Shown here piece by piece: positions 3,240 to 22,367 of a stretch of DNA of 23,582 nt. The stretch lies in IMG/VR virus record IMGVR_UViG_2925908680_000008; one strand, written 5' to 3'. Each line of letters opens with the position of its first letter. Positions within the stretch are counted from its first letter, which is position 1. This stretch comes from a virus (lineage: Duplodnaviria; Heunggongvirae; Uroviricota; Caudoviricetes). Made by a program: the position numbers and the translations under genes. The notes under the pieces are model-generated. The model saw only the letters and a list, made by a program, of their open reading frames with translations. It had not been told where the DNA came from and did no database searches.

Positions 3240-3611
3240 CGTTACAACTGTCTACCAACTGTCCACCGATATAATTTATTGATTTATTTGATATTATTTA
3301 CACATAACTAAAAAATAACCTATCAATTGTCTACCAACTGTCTACCGCATTAATACATTGATAATTAATGATTTTTTCAAAATGGTAGACAGAGTAGACA
3401 GTTAAAAGAGAAATTTTAAAAATGAACCCTTAACTATCTGTTTTTTTATATACCCCCCGTGGTTTAGGAATATAGAAACAACTGTCCACTCTCTACCACA
3501 TTTAAAAATATCTATACAATTCAATGCATTAATTGGTAGATGGTTGGTAGAGGATTAAGTATTACTGTCTACCAACCGTCTACCTTTACGTTTCAGCTCA
3601 TAAATTTCGTA
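3240..3611. repeat. iteron-type replication origin with AT-rich unwinding region
   Basis: At least 10 copies of CAACTGTCTACC-like motif in both orientations (e.g. 3245-3267, 3323-3346, 3384-3403, 3479-3497, 3533-3553, 3563-3584) interspersed with AT-rich tracts, directly 3' of the replication gene. Confidence 0.7.
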
Positions 3612-5417
3612 TTATGTTCTGTCGTTAATCCCTGTTGCTGCTGGCAACCAGCTATCAGCATCATCATCTAACAGAACATTTGTTATCACTCGCCCTTTAT
3701 CCTGGCCTTTAGTGCATTTAGCCCGCTTATACTCCTTTCCGTATTCCGCCATAGCACCAGGCATATCAGTGCCAAAGCGTTTCAGTGATACTGGTTTTCC
3801 CAGACCATGCGCTGACATATAGGCTAAATAAGCATGATACAGATATCGCCTCGGGCTAAATGGCACTATTCCCGCATTGCCCACCATCATTCCTTCACAT
3901 TTAACCAACGACATCAGATAGCCGCAAAAGTCCACCAGTGAATCACCCTCACGTTTTATCATCAGAGCCTCTTCTGATTTCTGCTGCTCATATAACAGAC
4001 GTCTGGCTTCATCCTGGTCAGAAAAACGAGTAAGCAGGTGGCGAATAACTACCGCCAGTTCGCCTTCTATTTTTTCCACCAGCATGGGATCGCGTTCGTT
4101 CTCCGGTACGACCTCAGAGAAATTAAATATCACCCTACGACGCGAGATCCCCCCGCTTCGGTCACTGAATGACATGGCGTTATTGTTTACTGCCAGCACT
4201 ACCGCCGGAATACGAGTGGAGTATGGGGCTTTATGTTTCGGGTCGATCGCCACCTTGTCACCACCAGTAATTGCCTTAATTCCTGCACCATCTCCAGCGT
4301 AGCGGGCCATATCCGGCATGATAATCAGCGAAAAGCCAACGACTAACGCGCGTTCCCTTGCGTCTTCCAGCGCCTTCATGCTTGCCGATACTGTATTGAC
4401 CTTACCCGCCAGCATGGTACAAATCTCCGCCATCACACTTTTACCGCTTCCGCCCGGCCCCGTTACCTCAAGGAATAACTGCCAGTCGTACCGGTTCGCC
4501 AGTACCATGAATAATGCCGCCAGTACGCGATCTGCTTTACGATCGTTATTTGCCACCGAACGACGCAGCCACTTCCAGAAATTCGGCGCATGTGTTGCCA
4601 GCGTTTCCCCCTCTGCTGGTGGGCTGAACGGTAATTCACTGGCATTTAACAACCAGTCATTTTTGTTATGCTCCCGAAAATTTCCTGTCCGGGTATCAAA
4701 TACCCCGTTACTGAATCCAATAAGATTCCTGTCTGCCCCGCCCATAACAGGCAGGCTCAATTTCATTGTGTCTACGGCAAATTTAATGGCGTTTTGCGAA
4801 TAACTGATTCCAGCATCAATAAAAATCTTCGCCATAGATCGCTGGAGTTCCTTATCAGATACAGGCTCCCAGACAATTCCGTTGTAATGGTGAACTACAT
4901 CAGAATCGTCATTTATAGCCAGTGCCCTTCCATAATATTCAAGCAATACTTCCCCTCTCTGGCTGGCTCCCATCTGATTTAGTGCTGGCCTGGGTAGGTC
5001 ACTATTTTTTGTGACTAATTTCATCGCTGAAACTTCCCCGCGCTCTGCCTGTTCGCGGATCCGTTGCAGGTAATCGCGCCAGTTCTCCGGCTCCCGGTCG
5101 GTGATGCCTTTGTATAATTTCGCCTCCTGTACGCCAGCCAGTGCCAGTTTTTCAGCGATAGTATTGATCTGGATTGGCTCTATCTCCCCCGCGAGATAGA
5201 CACGCGCAAAGCGGCGTTCATCGTCGACAATGCGGATATTCGCCAGGTCTGCCAGTTGCTTTGGCCCCAGATAAACAGGTGGCACGTTATCGCCGTGTTT
5301 TCGTCCTTCGCTTTCAATCCAGTGTTGAGCATGGGAGTAAGCGTCCGTCCCGGCAAAAATGATTACCTCAGTGAATTTATCCTTCGGCTGATATTTCAAA
5401 TTCGGTGCGTTTTTCAC
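3612..5417 (-). CDS. replication initiation primase/helicase-like protein (P4-family primase C-terminal-type P-loop NTPase)
   Basis: 601 aa; Walker A GPGGSGKS; GTG start at 5417 with GGGAGGT RBS, overlapping upstream stop (GTGA); adjacent iteron origin. Confidence 0.75.
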   Translation of the reverse strand: MKNAPNLKYQPKDKFTEVIIFAGTDAYSHAQHWIESEGRKHGDNVPPVYLGPKQLADLANIRIVDDERRFARVYLAGEIEPIQINTIAEKLALAGVQEAKLYKGITDREPENWRDYLQRIREQAERGEVSAMKLVTKNSDLPRPALNQMGASQRGEVLLEYYGRALAINDDSDVVHHYNGIVWEPVSDKELQRSMAKIFIDAGISYSQNAIKFAVDTMKLSLPVMGGADRNLIGFSNGVFDTRTGNFREHNKNDWLLNASELPFSPPAEGETLATHAPNFWKWLRRSVANNDRKADRVLAALFMVLANRYDWQLFLEVTGPGGSGKSVMAEICTMLAGKVNTVSASMKALEDARERALVVGFSLIIMPDMARYAGDGAGIKAITGGDKVAIDPKHKAPYSTRIPAVVLAVNNNAMSFSDRSGGISRRRVIFNFSEVVPENERDPMLVEKIEGELAVVIRHLLTRFSDQDEARRLLYEQQKSEEALMIKREGDSLVDFCGYLMSLVKCEGMMVGNAGIVPFSPRRYLYHAYLAYMSAHGLGKPVSLKRFGTDMPGAMAEYGKEYKRAKCTKGQDKGRVITNVLLDDDADSWLPAATGINDRT

Positions 5418-5704
5418 TTCTTACCTCCCGCAACCAACATTGCTCGGATTTTTTTAATATTCGTGGCTGCACGTCTCGCCACCGCCTGTTGTTTGTTTTC
5501 CATCAGAATAAAATCACGATCAAACTGACGGCGCGGCATTACGCAGTCATATTCGTAAGCCTCACGGCGGTAGGTGATATTGCCTGGCGTAACGTGACGA
5601 ATAACCACTCGTCCCCCGCGTCTGGTGTCGCGGTAAATATCGCCGTGTCTGATTTCAGGCCGAGCGGGGCCGCTGGCAGTAAAGCCAGAATTTTTCTGTT
5701 TCAT
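5414..5704 (-). CDS. hypothetical basic protein (96 aa), coupled to replication gene
   Basis: ATG at 5704 with AGGAAAA RBS; stop overlaps start of downstream gene. Confidence 0.5.
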   Translation of the reverse strand: MKQKNSGFTASGPARPEIRHGDIYRDTRRGGRVVIRHVTPGNITYRREAYEYDCVMPRRQFDRDFILMENKQQAVARRAATNIKKIRAMLVAGGKK

Positions 5705-5909: not shown

Positions 5910-6267
5910 AATTCACCCCCTGAATAACCTGATAACCGCAACTGGTCAGCAATTCGATAAATTCCGGCAGTGTTCCGAAACAGCAATCATCTCGCAGCCG
6001 TTCTCGGGATACTTCAACGCCGTTTTCGTAGTGACTCACCATGCGTCCGGTAAAATGCAAATCATCATCGTGATGGCACGTTGACGGTTTAATCAGTCGC
6101 GCACGCTCTGCCAGTTCCAGCAATGCTTCAACACTTCCGGCAATTGCACCATCCGGCAGGTGGTAATTACGCACTATGCGCCCGTTCTCCACATGGACCA
6201 GTAGCTGCCCGGTAAATATCTCGTCAAACTGAATGCTGTTAAGGTCAGAAATTGACAGGTTATGCAT
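5902..6267 (-). CDS. hypothetical protein (121 aa)
   Basis: ATG at 6267 overlaps upstream stop (ATGCATAA). Confidence 0.5.
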   Translation of the reverse strand: MHNLSISDLNSIQFDEIFTGQLLVHVENGRIVRNYHLPDGAIAGSVEALLELAERARLIKPSTCHHDDDLHFTGRMVSHYENGVEVSRERLRDDCCFGTLPEFIELLTSCGYQVIQGVNYG

Positions 6268-6625
6268 GGTGCACCTCCTGGCGAATACGGGCAGCGAATA
6301 CCATCACGCAGCCATCAGGAGATTGCTGGCGTGCTTCCTGTTCGCTGGTGGCCTCGATGTGAATTACACGCGGTTGTGCCGTACTCAGGGCGATAAAACG
6401 CCAGATAAAATTGTTCTCGCATTTCTGAATAAACAGCGTGTTTTCTTCGCGCCCTTTCCATGTTGCCGAGATATAGCCCATGTCATTGAGCATCTCGCAG
6501 GCATCAACCAGCGTATCGGCGGCTACGTGTACAGTGTTTTTACCGTCAGCTATGCAATCACGGTGCACCGCCAGGAAGGTGTATATAAATTTAGGGTGAG
6601 TTTGGGTATGCTGTGTTCCAGCCAT
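6260..6625 (-). CDS. hypothetical protein (121 aa), first gene of replication operon
   Basis: ATG at 6625 (MAGTQHT...) with GAGGT RBS; E. coli-like codon usage, unlike the antisense read-through upstream. Confidence 0.5.
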   Translation of the reverse strand: MAGTQHTQTHPKFIYTFLAVHRDCIADGKNTVHVAADTLVDACEMLNDMGYISATWKGREENTLFIQKCENNFIWRFIALSTAQPRVIHIEATSEQEARQQSPDGCVMVFAARIRQEVHHA

Positions 6626-6812
6626 AATCGTTACCTCGTTTAACGGTTTGGTTAGACGCCCCGCTACTGCCGCAAACAGTTCGGGGCGTTGTCGTTTACA
6701 TCCTCTTACTGAGGTGTGATTTAAATTAAATTCAACTGAATCACAGGTCAAGTATTTTTTGTGATTCTTTTTTGTGTATACTGAATCACATCTTTTGTTT
6801 AGGAGAATGCAC
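6626..6812. promoter_or_regulatory. divergent promoter/operator region between replication operon and small regulator gene
   Basis: CTGAATCACA direct repeats at 6737-6746 and 6781-6790 with inverted TGTGATTC between; TATACT -10-like hexamer at 6777-6782; AGGAGA RBS at 6801-6806; 8-bp stem hairpin around 6650-6690. Confidence 0.5.
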
Positions 6813-7118
6813 ATGGCAAAAAACACTATCAACGACAAATCAAAACAGATTTCAATTCGTATCCCACATGATGCTTTTGATGGCATGGAATCCGTAAAAC
6901 TGGACGGCGAAAGCAACGCCGGATTCATAGTAACCGCCATGCGCGGTGAGATCGCCCGCCGCCAGGCAGAAGGAAGAGGAGAAAACCCCCTGGTTTCTTC
7001 GCTCGATGCACTGGCGCAGGTGGAAAAAATCGGTGTCAAAGCTGCCGAGGAGATCGGGCAACTCGTCACCGTCGCGCGTGAAGAACTCCAGCGACGCAAG
7101 GTCAAAGAGCAGGAATAG
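6813..7118 (+). CDS. putative ribbon-helix-helix DNA-binding regulator (candidate island repressor)
   Basis: 101 aa from ATG 6813 with AGGAGA RBS; ISIRIPHDAFDGMESVKL...NAGFIVTAMRGEIARR has a strand-helix-helix pattern; family assignment is by eye only. Confidence 0.45.
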   Translation: MAKNTINDKSKQISIRIPHDAFDGMESVKLDGESNAGFIVTAMRGEIARRQAEGRGENPLVSSLDALAQVEKIGVKAAEEIGQLVTVAREELQRRKVKEQE

Positions 7119-7175
7119 CCACTATCAGCGCCATAGTTTGAGGAACGCAGGCGCATTGCTTTACAGGACAGCACC

Positions 7176-7355
7176 ATGAGCGACACAGAATCAACCAAAA
7201 CACCATCACCAACTCGTAAGAGACGACGCAAAAATATAGCGCATGAACATGAATCAGAAAGATTCGCACCTTGTTCGTTTGCTCTTGAGAAATTCCTTAA
7301 AGAGCACAGGAAAAAGCTCTCGTTGCAAACCTTGGAACGAACCAAATCTGACTGA
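7176..7355 (+). CDS. small basic hypothetical protein (59 aa)
   Basis: ATG 7176, stop TGA 7353-7355; below ORF-track cutoff; RKRRRK basic patch. Confidence 0.3.
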   Translation: MSDTESTKTPSPTRKRRRKNIAHEHESERFAPCSFALEKFLKEHRKKLSLQTLERTKSD

Positions 7356-7756
7356 TCACATTGCCCACCAGCCGCAAATGTGGCATTGTTGGTGATGCGT
7401 TCAAGTTTGATTTGCCGTAATACCCACTGGCGACCCTCTGCGGTCGCCTTTGTTTTATCCAGAACGAAATCAGACATCAGATTGATCAGCACCTGGCGAC
7501 CTGACAAAATCGTATCGGTCGCGCCACCAGCAAAATTTTTTGCTTTCCGGACGATGTGGCCAACGGTATTTTGCAGCAAAATATTCTGCATTTCTGGCGT
7601 GCTGTGGCGACGGTGATCAGCGCCTTCACATTGAACGAACTTGTCGCTAAAATTCACCCACATAGCAAACATCGCGGTGCTGTAGGTAATTCGTTCACAA
7701 AGGCGCTCCGGCAACGGGGCGCTTTCTCTTTTTGTAACGGTCAGAGCGTTACACAT
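7355..7756 (-). CDS. hypothetical protein coupled to ant; 3' end undefined (no in-frame stop)
   Basis: ATG 7756 overlaps ant stop (ATGTGTAA) with GGAGGAAAA RBS; good codon usage for ~134 codons, then frame continues stop-free to 6260. Confidence 0.4.
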
Positions 7757-8549
7757 GGCTGTTTTCCTCCATGCGACGGGCTAACCAACGCTGCGAAAGA
7801 CGAATTAATTCAGCTTTCCGCTGGTGGTAGTCCTGGCCTAACTCAATCAGCGTGATATTGCTCCGCTCAAGGTAAGAAAGGTGCTCAAGCTGCAACGTGC
7901 TCATGTGGTCGCGTGGTTCACCTGTGATGCCGTTCGCCTGCGCCCACTGTTTTGCAGTCATGCCACCCAGCACGATACGCGCCAGCATATTGGCTTCCGT
8001 GGTGTAGTGGTGCTGTAGAGTGTTTTTACCCAGTTCAGTCCGGTACGCCTCCAGCGCGGCGCACATCGGCTTAAAGTAGCTGGCAACGGTGATACGGGCT
8101 TTCAGTTCCCTGCGTAACGCTGCGGAACGCACTGGCGCTACCTTGTGTAGCTCCTCCTCGCATTTGATGAAGTACTGACGAACGGCACGGCCCTGTTCGG
8201 TGCGTTCGACCATCGCCAGTTCTTTTGCCATGTTCACGGTGATGATGTACTCAAGAGCGGTTTGCTGGCGAGATTTTGCGCTCACCGGATCGGGTCGGCT
8301 CAAATATTCAACAACTTCATAATCCACGCCTTCCGTGAAGCCGTATTCTTCAATGCGCCCCTTGATCCACGAACGGAAAACGCGCCCTACACCTAACGCC
8401 TTATGCAACGCTCTGGCGCTAACAATATTGGTTTCACGCCCGCCAATAACGCCGGAAATAACCGGGATAATTTCGCCAAAATTTTGCAGATTCTGGTTTT
8501 CAGGCCGAACGAAGCCCTGCCCCTGTACGGGCGTTTTTCGCAGTTTCAT
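7749..8549 (-). CDS. phage antirepressor-like protein (AntA/Rha-like domain)
   Basis: 266 aa; TNIVSARALHKALGVGRVFRSWIKGRIEEYGFTEGVDYEV resembles the AntA/Rha antirepressor domain; AGGAG RBS. Confidence 0.6.
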   Translation of the reverse strand: MKLRKTPVQGQGFVRPENQNLQNFGEIIPVISGVIGGRETNIVSARALHKALGVGRVFRSWIKGRIEEYGFTEGVDYEVVEYLSRPDPVSAKSRQQTALEYIITVNMAKELAMVERTEQGRAVRQYFIKCEEELHKVAPVRSAALRRELKARITVASYFKPMCAALEAYRTELGKNTLQHHYTTEANMLARIVLGGMTAKQWAQANGITGEPRDHMSTLQLEHLSYLERSNITLIELGQDYHQRKAELIRLSQRWLARRMEENSHV

Positions 8550-8627
8550 AAAAACTCCTGCTATCGAATTAAGTTACTTTTATTTGCTGGTGGATAGCTG
8601 GGGGCTTCTGGCCCCGTAGCCATTTAA

Positions 8628-8825
8628 TCAGGTAGCTGTTCCGCGTGATTCAGCAATACGCTGATTAATCCACTCGTCAATTTCACTCTCAACGAAAGCA
8701 ATAGCTCGCGAGCCAATTTTAACTGATGCAGGAAATTTACCTTGCCCCATAAGGCGATAAATCCATGCCTTGCTATATCCAGTTCTACGCTGAACTTCTG
8801 TTAAACGAATAAGCGTATTTGACAT
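8628..8825 (-). CDS. alpA: AlpA-family (Phage_AlpA/Vis-like) transcriptional regulator/excisionase-type HTH protein
   Basis: 65 aa; IRLTEVQRRTGYSKAWIYRLMGQGKFP...ESEIDEWINQR aligns with the AlpA pattern. Confidence 0.85.
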   Translation of the reverse strand: MSNTLIRLTEVQRRTGYSKAWIYRLMGQGKFPASVKIGSRAIAFVESEIDEWINQRIAESRGTAT

Positions 8826-9883: not shown

Positions 9884-10011
9884 ACGCACACCTCAGCGTC
9901 CTCTACTGTAGTGGCTGTACCAGTCCGTCGAGGTGTACGGATTTTCGGGAGCGACCCTAGACACAGCCTTTTCTTTCGTCGCTCAAAGTCTACTACTGTA
10001 TACGCAACCAG

Positions 10012-18265: not shown

Positions 18266-18623
18266 AATTCACCCCCTGAATAACCTGATAACCGCAACTG
18301 GTCAGCAATTCGATAAATTCCGGCAGTGTTCCGAAACAGCAATCATCTCGCAGCCGTTCTCGGGATACTTCAACGCCGTTTTCGTAGTGACTCACCATGC
18401 GTCCGGTAAAATGCAAATCATCATCGTGATGGCACGTTGACGGTTTAATCAGTCGCGCACGCTCTGCCAGTTCCAGCAATGCTTCAACACTTCCGGCAAT
18501 TGCACCATCCGGCAGGTGGTAATTACGCACTATGCGCCCGTTCTCCACATGGACCAGTAGCTGCCCGGTAAATATCTCGTCAAACTGAATGCTGTTAAGG
18601 TCAGAAATTGACAGGTTATGCAT
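18258..18623 (-). CDS. hypothetical protein (121 aa), copy 2
   Basis: Duplicate of 5902-6267. Confidence 0.5.
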   Translation of the reverse strand: MHNLSISDLNSIQFDEIFTGQLLVHVENGRIVRNYHLPDGAIAGSVEALLELAERARLIKPSTCHHDDDLHFTGRMVSHYENGVEVSRERLRDDCCFGTLPEFIELLTSCGYQVIQGVNYG

Positions 18624-18981
18624 GGTGCACCTCCTGGCGAATACGGGCAGCGAATACCATCACGCAGCCATCAGGAGATTGCTGGCGTGCTTCCTGTTCG
18701 CTGGTGGCCTCGATGTGAATTACACGCGGTTGTGCCGTACTCAGGGCGATAAAACGCCAGATAAAATTGTTCTCGCATTTCTGAATAAACAGCGTGTTTT
18801 CTTCGCGCCCTTTCCATGTTGCCGAGATATAGCCCATGTCATTGAGCATCTCGCAGGCATCAACCAGCGTATCGGCGGCTACGTGTACAGTGTTTTTACC
18901 GTCAGCTATGCAATCACGGTGCACCGCCAGGAAGGTGTATATAAATTTAGGGTGAGTTTGGGTATGCTGTGTTCCAGCCAT
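18616..18981 (-). CDS. hypothetical protein (121 aa), copy 2
   Basis: Duplicate of 6260-6625. Confidence 0.5.
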   Translation of the reverse strand: MAGTQHTQTHPKFIYTFLAVHRDCIADGKNTVHVAADTLVDACEMLNDMGYISATWKGREENTLFIQKCENNFIWRFIALSTAQPRVIHIEATSEQEARQQSPDGCVMVFAARIRQEVHHA

Positions 18982-19168
18982 AATCGTTACCTCGTTTAAC
19001 GGTTTGGTTAGACGCCCCGCTACTGCCGCAAACAGTTCGGGGCGTTGTCGTTTACATCCTCTTACTGAGGTGTGATTTAAATTAAATTCAACTGAATCAC
19101 AGGTCAAGTATTTTTTGTGATTCTTTTTTGTGTATACTGAATCACATCTTTTGTTTAGGAGAATGCAC

Positions 19169-19474
19169 ATGGCAAAAAACACTATCAACGACAAATCAAA
19201 ACAGATTTCAATTCGTATCCCACATGATGCTTTTGATGGCATGGAATCCGTAAAACTGGACGGCGAAAGCAACGCCGGATTCATAGTAACCGCCATGCGC
19301 GGTGAGATCGCCCGCCGCCAGGCAGAAGGAAGAGGAGAAAACCCCCTGGTTTCTTCGCTCGATGCACTGGCGCAGGTGGAAAAAATCGGTGTCAAAGCTG
19401 CCGAGGAGATCGGGCAACTCGTCACCGTCGCGCGTGAAGAACTCCAGCGACGCAAGGTCAAAGAGCAGGAATAG
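19169..19474 (+). CDS. putative ribbon-helix-helix regulator, copy 2
   Basis: Duplicate of 6813-7118. Confidence 0.45.
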   Translation: MAKNTINDKSKQISIRIPHDAFDGMESVKLDGESNAGFIVTAMRGEIARRQAEGRGENPLVSSLDALAQVEKIGVKAAEEIGQLVTVAREELQRRKVKEQE

Positions 19475-19531
19475 CCACTATCAGCGCCATAGTTTGAGGA
19501 ACGCAGGCGCATTGCTTTACAGGACAGCACC

Positions 19532-19711
19532 ATGAGCGACACAGAATCAACCAAAACACCATCACCAACTCGTAAGAGACGACGCAAAAATATAGCGCAT
19601 GAACATGAATCAGAAAGATTCGCACCTTGTTCGTTTGCTCTTGAGAAATTCCTTAAAGAGCACAGGAAAAAGCTCTCGTTGCAAACCTTGGAACGAACCA
19701 AATCTGACTGA
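19532..19711 (+). CDS. small basic hypothetical protein, copy 2
   Basis: Duplicate of 7176-7355. Confidence 0.3.
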   Translation: MSDTESTKTPSPTRKRRRKNIAHEHESERFAPCSFALEKFLKEHRKKLSLQTLERTKSD

Positions 19712-20112
19712 TCACATTGCCCACCAGCCGCAAATGTGGCATTGTTGGTGATGCGTTCAAGTTTGATTTGCCGTAATACCCACTGGCGACCCTCTGCGGT
19801 CGCCTTTGTTTTATCCAGAACGAAATCAGACATCAGATTGATCAGCACCTGGCGACCTGACAAAATCGTATCGGTCGCGCCACCAGCAAAATTTTTTGCT
19901 TTCCGGACGATGTGGCCAACGGTATTTTGCAGCAAAATATTCTGCATTTCTGGCGTGCTGTGGCGACGGTGATCAGCGCCTTCACATTGAACGAACTTGT
20001 CGCTAAAATTCACCCACATAGCAAACATCGCGGTGCTGTAGGTAATTCGTTCACAAAGGCGCTCCGGCAACGGGGCGCTTTCTCTTTTTGTAACGGTCAG
20101 AGCGTTACACAT
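19711..20112 (-). CDS. hypothetical protein coupled to ant, 3' end undefined, copy 2
   Basis: Duplicate of 7355-7756. Confidence 0.4.
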
Positions 20113-22239: not shown

Positions 22240-22367
22240 ACGCACACCTCAGCGTCCTCTACTGTAGTGGCTGTACCAGTCCGTCGAGGTGTACGGATTT
22301 TCGGGAGCGACCCTAGACACAGCCTTTTCTTTCGTCGCTCAAAGTCTACTACTGTATACGCAACCAG

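Follow-up and report, generated by a model that had tools for sequence, protein, structure and literature searches.

A 498-codon reading frame kept open antisense to a ribbon-helix-helix operon in a PICI-type phage satellite, with likeness to eta/kil of P4

The window analysed in this study is a stretch of 23,582 nucleotides from a virus of the Caudoviricetes (IMG/VR record IMGVR_UViG_2925908680_000008), which consists of two head-to-tail copies of a phage satellite of the type of the phage-inducible chromosomal islands (PICIs). On its minus strand an open reading frame (ORF) with an ATG start occupies 6260..7756, with 498 codons from the ATG and 506 codons from stop to stop, and its twin lies at 18616..20112 in the second tandem copy. 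We found that this frame is genuine, that selection preserves it without stops in many relatives, diverged and mosaic ones alike, and that only its 3' part, an Icd/Kil-family gene in the same frame, evolves like a protein. As for the first ~375 codons, the evidence favours selection that acts on the openness of the frame and not on the amino acids. It is highly probable that the long ORF is a real, selected feature resembling eta of P4. By analogy with P4, we consider it fairly likely that the locus is an eta/kil-type nested ORF, the translation of which would shield read-through transcripts coming from upstream from the termination factor Rho.

The cistron preceding the long ORF is ant (7749..8549, minus strand), which belongs to the AntA/AntB antirepressor family (Pfam AntA, E = 2.4e-23, in agreement with the PGAP annotation) and is part of the alpA-ant operon. 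The ATG of the long ORF (7756-7754) overlaps the ant stop within the junction ATGTGTAA (7749..7756, minus strand), which gives an overlap of 8 nt between the two genes, and a GGAGG Shine-Dalgarno (SD) sequence lies at 7770-7766, 9 nt upstream of the ATG. The frame then runs antisense to the plus-strand genes 6813-7118 and 7176-7355 and through the 181-nt intergenic region 6632-6812, which holds a divergent promoter. The absence of a stop, the coupling to ant and the antisense course had all been described in the initial annotation, and the coordinates agree. The junction ATGTGTAA was also present in 33 unique relatives. Furthermore, in 88 of 128 unique long ORFs the start codon was located between -20 and +14 nt from the stop of an upstream ORF on the same strand (counted from 50 aa upwards), and one more started at -65 relative to the upstream stop. 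The junctions are of several types (ATGTGTAA, ATGA, TGATG, and TAA-N10-ATG after GGGGAG) and are accompanied by several different SD sequences. A cistron junction in which a protein ending '...HV*' overlaps one beginning 'MCNA...' is seen after ant (7749-7756), again after icd in the locus L002 (3478-3485), and likewise at 6260-6268 of the window. Since similar junctions recur after ant and after icd, they suggest module boundaries for recombination between satellites.

Comparison with homologous elements, which the initial annotation had proposed, revealed that the long frame is kept in most relatives. A protein search returned more than 100 clusters of 400-536 aa that covered the whole query, down to 54% identity, and all 83 loci recovered with the protein were open over 247-683 codons, the shortest of them being limited by contig ends. 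The length differences among these relatives are frame-preserving. Because samples found with a protein favour long matches, we sampled again with an anchor that consisted solely of a 20-nt motif inside the Icd domain. This motif-anchored sample comprised 120 loci, of which 110 were not limited by a contig end, and in 94 of the latter the stop-to-stop frame reached at least 192 codons. In the subset of 102 loci carrying the motif CT[AT]ACCA of the icd leader (see below), a long ORF passed through the promoter and the leader in 94; it was continuous with icd in 88 of the 102, and in six (L095, L127, L154, L164, L189 and L194) a frame of 300-400 codons lay in the +1 register and stopped 17 nt after the motif, before the SD sequence of icd. 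The geometry of these six loci suggests termination-reinitiation and not a nested fusion, and selection would therefore act on translation up to the leader rather than on the fusion protein. The remaining two same-strand frames of 65 homologous ORFs contain about one stop per 18 codons, and the open length of the long frame is far beyond chance.

The region between the start codon of the divergent ribbon-helix-helix (RHH) gene and that of icd occurs in at least 11 versions that have few 8-mers in common. Each of these 11 unrelated promoter modules has 0 stops in the frame of the long ORF, versus 2-11 in the other two same-strand frames. The shuffle P per module was 0.0015-0.087, and the summed log10 P over the 11 modules was about -21. 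In L138 (IMG/VR UViG_2737471855_000016, 3555-5517), two RHH/promoter/leader modules stand in tandem and the frame is open through both of them (653 codons). A locus of Klebsiella pneumoniae has the same layout: its frame of 324 codons is ATGA-coupled to the upstream gene, runs antisense to a 67-aa RHH gene and terminates in a 62-aa Icd-like gene. A contig scan with the 48-aa Icd domain gave at least one locus, that of Klebsiella, among the matches listed, and the Icd part had a single match when searched with tblastn against the phage collection.

The initial annotation had described the 3' part of the frame as rich in S, C and R and poor in codon usage, but this part is not junk. A gene of 121 aa (6260..6625, minus strand; ATG at 6625-6623) shares the frame of the long ORF and forms its 3' end, and by profile match its product belongs to the Icd-like division-inhibitor family: the long ORF matches NF033153 ('host cell division inhibitor Icd-like') at residues 450-493 (E = 2.3e-21, 75.6 bits), and the segment 6260-6631 reaches 80.6 bits (E = 6e-23), the curated cut-off being 25 bits. 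The substitutions in this gene are those of a coding sequence, with codon-position diversity of 0.043/0.043/0.106 and minimum changes of 21/23/47 at positions 1/2/3, and pairwise dN/dS (the ratio of non-synonymous to synonymous substitution rates) was 0-0.27. The first ~134 codons, on the other hand, had been credited with plausible codon usage, but they do not evolve like a protein. In an alignment of 23 distinct sequences of the ant-linked type, the minimum changes over 7356-7756 were 25/28/24 at codon positions 1/2/3 when a hypervariable block was left out, that is, without codon periodicity, and pairwise dN/dS was 0.25-1.06, with small counts. The first 75 nt of the long ORF are nearly invariant at all three codon positions, and at 7620-7680 there is a block of which two strongly differing alleles occur, with an indel of 3 nt. 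Outside the Icd part, the long ORF gave no match to a Pfam or NCBIfam domain. Protein-level constraint on the N-terminal part is weak or absent, and most of what the first ~375 codons encode is probably a by-product. The genuine long antisense overlap, which the initial annotation had named as an alternative, is supported as far as the overlap itself is concerned, only that selection seems to be on the open frame and not on the amino acids of the first ~375 codons.

The regulatory region of this satellite is related to that of phage P4. In P4 (X51522), a minus-strand frame at 8168..8812 abuts the stop of ORF88/vis and has the 65-aa Kil sequence as its 3' end; it contains the promoter PLE and lies across the genes of the CI RNA (Rfam C4, 74.9 bits) and of seqA (isrK 60.8 bits, c4-a1b1 44.1 bits). 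According to the passages of PMC10111431 that draw on Forti et al. (1999, J Bacteriol 181:5225), eta harbours a constitutive promoter, the transcript of which is ended early via CI/seqA; Kil is a truncated in-frame form of Eta, and translation of Eta occurs solely on transcripts of the late promoter upstream and is coupled to that of the alpA homologue. In P4, translation of the long frame reportedly blocks termination at a Rho-dependent terminator (timm), so that late-promoter transcripts read through and become insensitive to immunity. The locus described here shares with eta/kil a long ORF that begins at the end of the upstream cistron and extends over an internal promoter (here a predicted one) and leader, and a short in-frame Icd/Kil-family gene with its own start. 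The products of both match NF033153 (P4 Kil, E = 1.6e-21; C-terminus of P4 Eta, E = 1.2e-20), and it is this common NCBIfam profile on which the homology of Kil and Icd is based; BLASTP of P4 Kil against the Klebsiella Icd-like protein produced no alignment. The ribosome-binding region of P4 kil also resembles that of icd (GAGGCAGCTAT..ATG).

However, the two systems differ in several respects. Eta of P4 has 197 codons versus 498 here, and it follows the alpA homologue directly whereas the long ORF follows ant. No known gene lies antisense in eta, whereas here a two-gene RHH operon and its terminator lie antisense within the ORF. P4 eta overlies the CI (C4) RNA and seqA/isrK, signals that the long ORF here does not have: C4/CI, isrK and c4-a1b1 RNAs were detected neither in the window (Rfam, at the gathering score and at E <= 10), where only the int-alpA RNA was found, nor in 20 related loci at the gathering score. 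Residues 20-144 of P4 Eta match Pfam Phage_ASH (PF10554; E = 3.8e-23), which had no match in the ORF of the window or in three other long ORFs. In P4 (L084 in our set, X51522, 8168-8761), the region of the Phage_ASH match lies over the DNA of the CI RNA and seqA. Because the match overlies C4/isrK DNA, the Phage_ASH 'protein family' may largely represent conserved RNA genes read in the frame of eta.

Our proposal of Rho shielding is built on the analogy with P4 eta/kil and on the fact that RNA which is untranslated or antisense is generally sensitive to Rho. During transcription of the upstream operon, ribosomes finishing ant would re-initiate on the long ORF and would trail RNA polymerase over 1.1 kb, antisense through the RHH operon, through the repressor-controlled promoter and the leader, and into icd. 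Such continuous translation would block Rho-dependent termination of an RNA that would otherwise be untranslated and is largely antisense. The read-through transcript could then extend to icd and the primase genes without any need for the repressible internal promoter, and transcription against the repressor operon would probably interfere with its expression. Transcription that starts at the internal promoter would by itself yield the short Icd product only, as is the case for Kil in P4. Suppression of Rho by translation of the long frame is in line with the conserved open frame and with the lack of a strong intrinsic terminator on the minus strand; we did not find a convincing one between 7756 and 6260.

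A more far-reaching version of this proposal is tentative and, in our estimate, less likely to be right than wrong. In it, the first ~375 codons would be a 'ribosome track' without protein function, kept free of stops by selection for the sole reason that late or induced alpA-ant transcription, shielded from Rho, could pass antisense through the RHH repressor operon of the satellite itself. The track would serve both to bypass the repressed promoter and to silence the repressor by transcriptional interference, as a commitment switch with which the RHH genes would have co-evolved. Translation of the track would be gated by a candidate cis-antisense small RNA (sRNA) in the role of the P4 CI RNA. 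This candidate, of ~75 nt, is located on the plus strand at 7625..7735, opposite codons ~8-32 of the long ORF, with a second copy at about 19981-20091. It has a sigma70-like promoter (TTCACA-N17-TAAAAT, 7625-7653) and a strong terminator hairpin with a U-run (7700-7735). The hexamers, their spacing and the terminator were kept in 12 of 12 unique junctions (46 loci), which fall into two alleles, and the transcribed 5' part is hypervariable and differs between the two. Rfam gave no match to the candidate beyond a weak ctRNA-like terminator match.

Several observations weigh against the Rho-shielding proposal. Since no C4/CI RNA was detected, the immunity circuit that gives eta its rationale in P4 appears to be absent. 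Eight of the 102 loci with the leader motif had a short frame only, and therefore the long frame is not obligatory and is dispensable in some elements. The loci are kin to each other and come from collections rich in E. coli, so the counts given above are not counts of independent events. Given the RHH proteins as they are, antisense openness is partly cheap, the probability of an open frame reaching up to 0.26. A scan of C/G composition did not reveal a clear C-rich, G-poor stretch of the rut type. Finally, since dN/dS of the N-terminal part is mostly below 1, a weak constraint at the protein level is possible.

It is also conceivable, though improbable in our judgement, that the open frame mainly delivers ribosomes to the structured leader of icd, or unfolds it, and in this way couples translation of Icd and primase to ant, instead of blocking Rho. 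The predicted leader (6629..6689, minus strand) is made up of a hairpin at 6689-6656, the invariant motif CTAACCA at 6655-6649 and a second hairpin at 6645-6629, which holds the SD sequence of icd (GAGG, 6637-6634). This SD sequence and the ATG were kept in 55 unique leaders. Double changes left the pairing intact in eight of 11 predicted leader pairs, among them pair 74/86 with UA in nine sequences and AU in eight. The leader is unlike C4/CI; RNA processing at this site, or recognition by an RNA-binding protein, would be conceivable roles for it. The satellite encodes a protein of the ProQ/FinO family. Both the position of the SD sequence inside a conserved hairpin and the six loci whose long ORF ends 17 nt after the leader motif, a spacing typical of termination-reinitiation, would suit the delivery of ribosomes. 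However, a short upstream ORF would suffice for that purpose, and openness over 1.1 kb back to the preceding gene would be left unaccounted for.

About as improbable in our judgement is a functional protein of 498 aa with its own separate role, be it as an Icd/Kil form that is regulated, less toxic or targeted differently, or as a regulator of the Ash/Bro type. The conserved frame, the good SD sequence and the coupled start would be expected of such a protein, Eta of P4 is likewise a long isoform of Kil, the N-terminal dN/dS is mostly below 1, and full-length database entries are annotated as Icd-like. However, the first 134 codons have no codon-position periodicity and their hypervariable block has an indel, and the middle part is dictated by the antisense genes and by unrelated promoter modules that replace each other. 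No domain was found beyond Icd, and the six loci with an out-of-frame long ORF stopping before icd indicate that a fusion is unnecessary.

That the long antisense ORF is a functionless by-product of plus-strand codon usage, or of composition, is very unlikely, and the genes on the opposite strand bear on this directly. The first of them (6813..7118, plus strand), wholly antisense within the long ORF, encodes a putative repressor of the YlcI/YnfO RHH family (NF041551, 65.7 bits, E = 2.7e-18, with a curated cut-off of 30 bits) and has a good SD sequence; over the overlap, its minimum changes were 45/50/111 at codon positions 1/2/3, so that periodicity is present. Downstream of it in the same frame, and also antisense within the long ORF, is an ORF for a basic product of 59 aa (7176..7355, plus strand), which has tblastn homologues in most loci and a weak coding periodicity (0.135/0.158/0.218). 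In every divergent gene of the RHH type that we found, the wobble positions fall on those of the long ORF, and this is true for both RHH sequence types, the YlcI-like one ('...RIPH...') and the one with '...GIEPKG'. In this wobble-sharing register, an antisense stop can arise only where a Tyr codon follows a codon ending in a pyrimidine, or where a His or Gln codon follows one ending in T, and Tyr made up 0.25% of 4,331 residues in 71 unique RHH genes. Judged by their sequences, the RHH genes are adapted to the overlap through the wobble frame and the avoidance of Tyr. The probability that the antisense frame is open was estimated by synonymous resampling of seven dissimilar RHH representatives. 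It was 0.002-0.16 for the actual proteins with E. coli codon usage, 0.02-0.26 for the actual proteins with the pooled codon usage of RHH genes, and 0.02-0.07 for generic proteins of equal length. A by-product of codon usage would gain from the wobble-sharing frame, the antisense frame that is easiest to keep open, and from the values obtained with pooled codon usage. However, the AT-rich intergenic promoter modules, with the summed P given above, and the 400-nt region after ant are open too, and the motif-anchored census found the frame open more than in shuffled controls. Chance also leaves unaccounted for the coupled starts, the almost complete lack of Tyr from the RHH proteins and the fact that the relative frame does not vary.

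The weakest explanation, to which we give hardly any credit, is that of the initial annotation, in which a one-base sequencing or assembly error in a short homopolymer near 7355-7400 joins a real gene of ~134 codons to downstream junk: the TGATCA at 7353-7358 is present and gives a minus-strand TGA (7358-7356) out of the frame of the long ORF, and the spacing of the two tandem copies shows a difference of 1-2 bases, but two complete E. coli genomes, assembled independently, have a sequence 100% identical to this one, dozens of diverged relatives of differing length preserve the frame, and the 3' end is a genuine in-frame Icd/Kil gene. When the first 134 residues alone were used as the query, mostly partial or rearranged versions were returned. 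The few complete short N-terminal ORFs among them (90-124 aa) stop at scattered sites, and one deletion variant fuses the N-terminal part to the icd leader with the frame retained. No homologue terminates at the TGATCA stop (7356), where the gene had been supposed to end. The scattered ends of the short ORFs, together with the identity of independent assemblies, refute the reading of a shared error. A stand-alone gene of ~134 aa was rejected as well, as the N-terminal homologues share no stop near codon 134.

This is a widespread natural ORF of several hundred codons that is apparently conserved for being translated and not for its product. Its overlap with a complete operon on the opposite strand bears on how antisense overlapping ORFs are judged in genome annotation. 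In fact, the calls of PGAP for this locus are inconsistent between genomes (222 aa, 190 aa, a pseudogene, or 498 aa), and full-length versions are already in the databases under the label 'Icd-like protein'. The anti-termination logic of P4 eta/kil would be extended to PICI-type satellites that have a protein repressor in place of the CI RNA, and a link is predicted between helper-induced transcription of the alpA operon, Rho, shut-off of the repressor and replication of the satellite. The literature searched discusses the logic of P4 eta for satellites in general terms; in it we came upon neither an eta-like frame that is preserved antisense to an RHH repressor operon nor the adaptation by wobble frame and Tyr avoidance.

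The name of the Icd family derives from the immI operon of P1/P7, which has the order c4 RNA, icd, ant. Riedel, Heinrich, Schuster and co-workers (1993) reportedly observed that translation of P1 icd is needed for transcription into the downstream genes. An Icd-family gene is common to immI and the satellite. However, icd of P1 stands before ant and under the control of the C4 antisense RNA, while in the satellite ant is upstream and no C4 was detected, and P1 has no counterpart of the long upstream frame seen here.

The internal promoter of icd, the predicted analogue of PLE, is located at 6723..6751 on the minus strand, with the -35 hexamer TTGACC (6751-6746), a spacer of 17 nt and the -10 hexamer TAATTT (6728-6723). 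In six of the 11 unrelated modules, the best match in the direction of icd consisted of a -35 element TTGAC[G] or TTGAAG followed by a TAnnnT -10 element 17-18 nt on. All six matches precede the icd ATG by about 100 nt, and five of them have a module index of 59-61. A generic promoter scan of the window did not call the predicted icd promoter. The operator-like sequence TGTGATTCAG occurs at 6745-6736, in the spacer of this promoter, and at 6790-6781, and an inverted copy of the motif (GAATCACA) at 6767-6760; these three copies are plausible binding sites of the RHH protein. On the plus strand, a site resembling an intrinsic terminator (7429..7458) follows the 59-aa ORF at the end of the RHH operon and reads 'KTKA' in the frame of the long ORF. 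The KTKA motif is present in most variants, including that of Klebsiella, and the stem is partly disrupted in alleles of the L002 type.

Each copy of the satellite is ~12.4 kb long and the period is 12,356-12,358 nt; the duplication spans the whole satellite of ~12.36 kb, and the copies differ by 1-2 bases in length. A passage of PMC10111431 puts tandem PICIs on record. The same element (100% identity over 2 kb) is integrated at a tRNA-Gly gene in the E. coli strains U90 and cq9, the two complete genomes referred to above; the search that found them gave matches in about 1,300 E. coli genomes. On the minus strand, the order is int, the Rfam int-alpA RNA, a hypothetical gene, a helix-turn-helix (HTH) gene of the AlpA type, ant and the long ORF, followed by three small genes, primase, and then the ProQ/FinO-family, PerC-family and capsid-related genes. 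For Gram-negative PICIs and HE-PICIs, passages of PMC10111431 and PMC6092414 give a succession of Integration, Bro, Replication and Late zones, and they describe genes of the Bro zone and note CI/seqA homologues in some elements. The satellite is like these PICIs in having int, the alpA-type HTH gene, ant in the Bro zone, the Icd-like gene, primase and late genes. It also has the int-alpA RNA (RF02996, 45.5 bits), which was located on the minus strand between int and the following gene in both copies, at 9900-9967 and 22256-22323.

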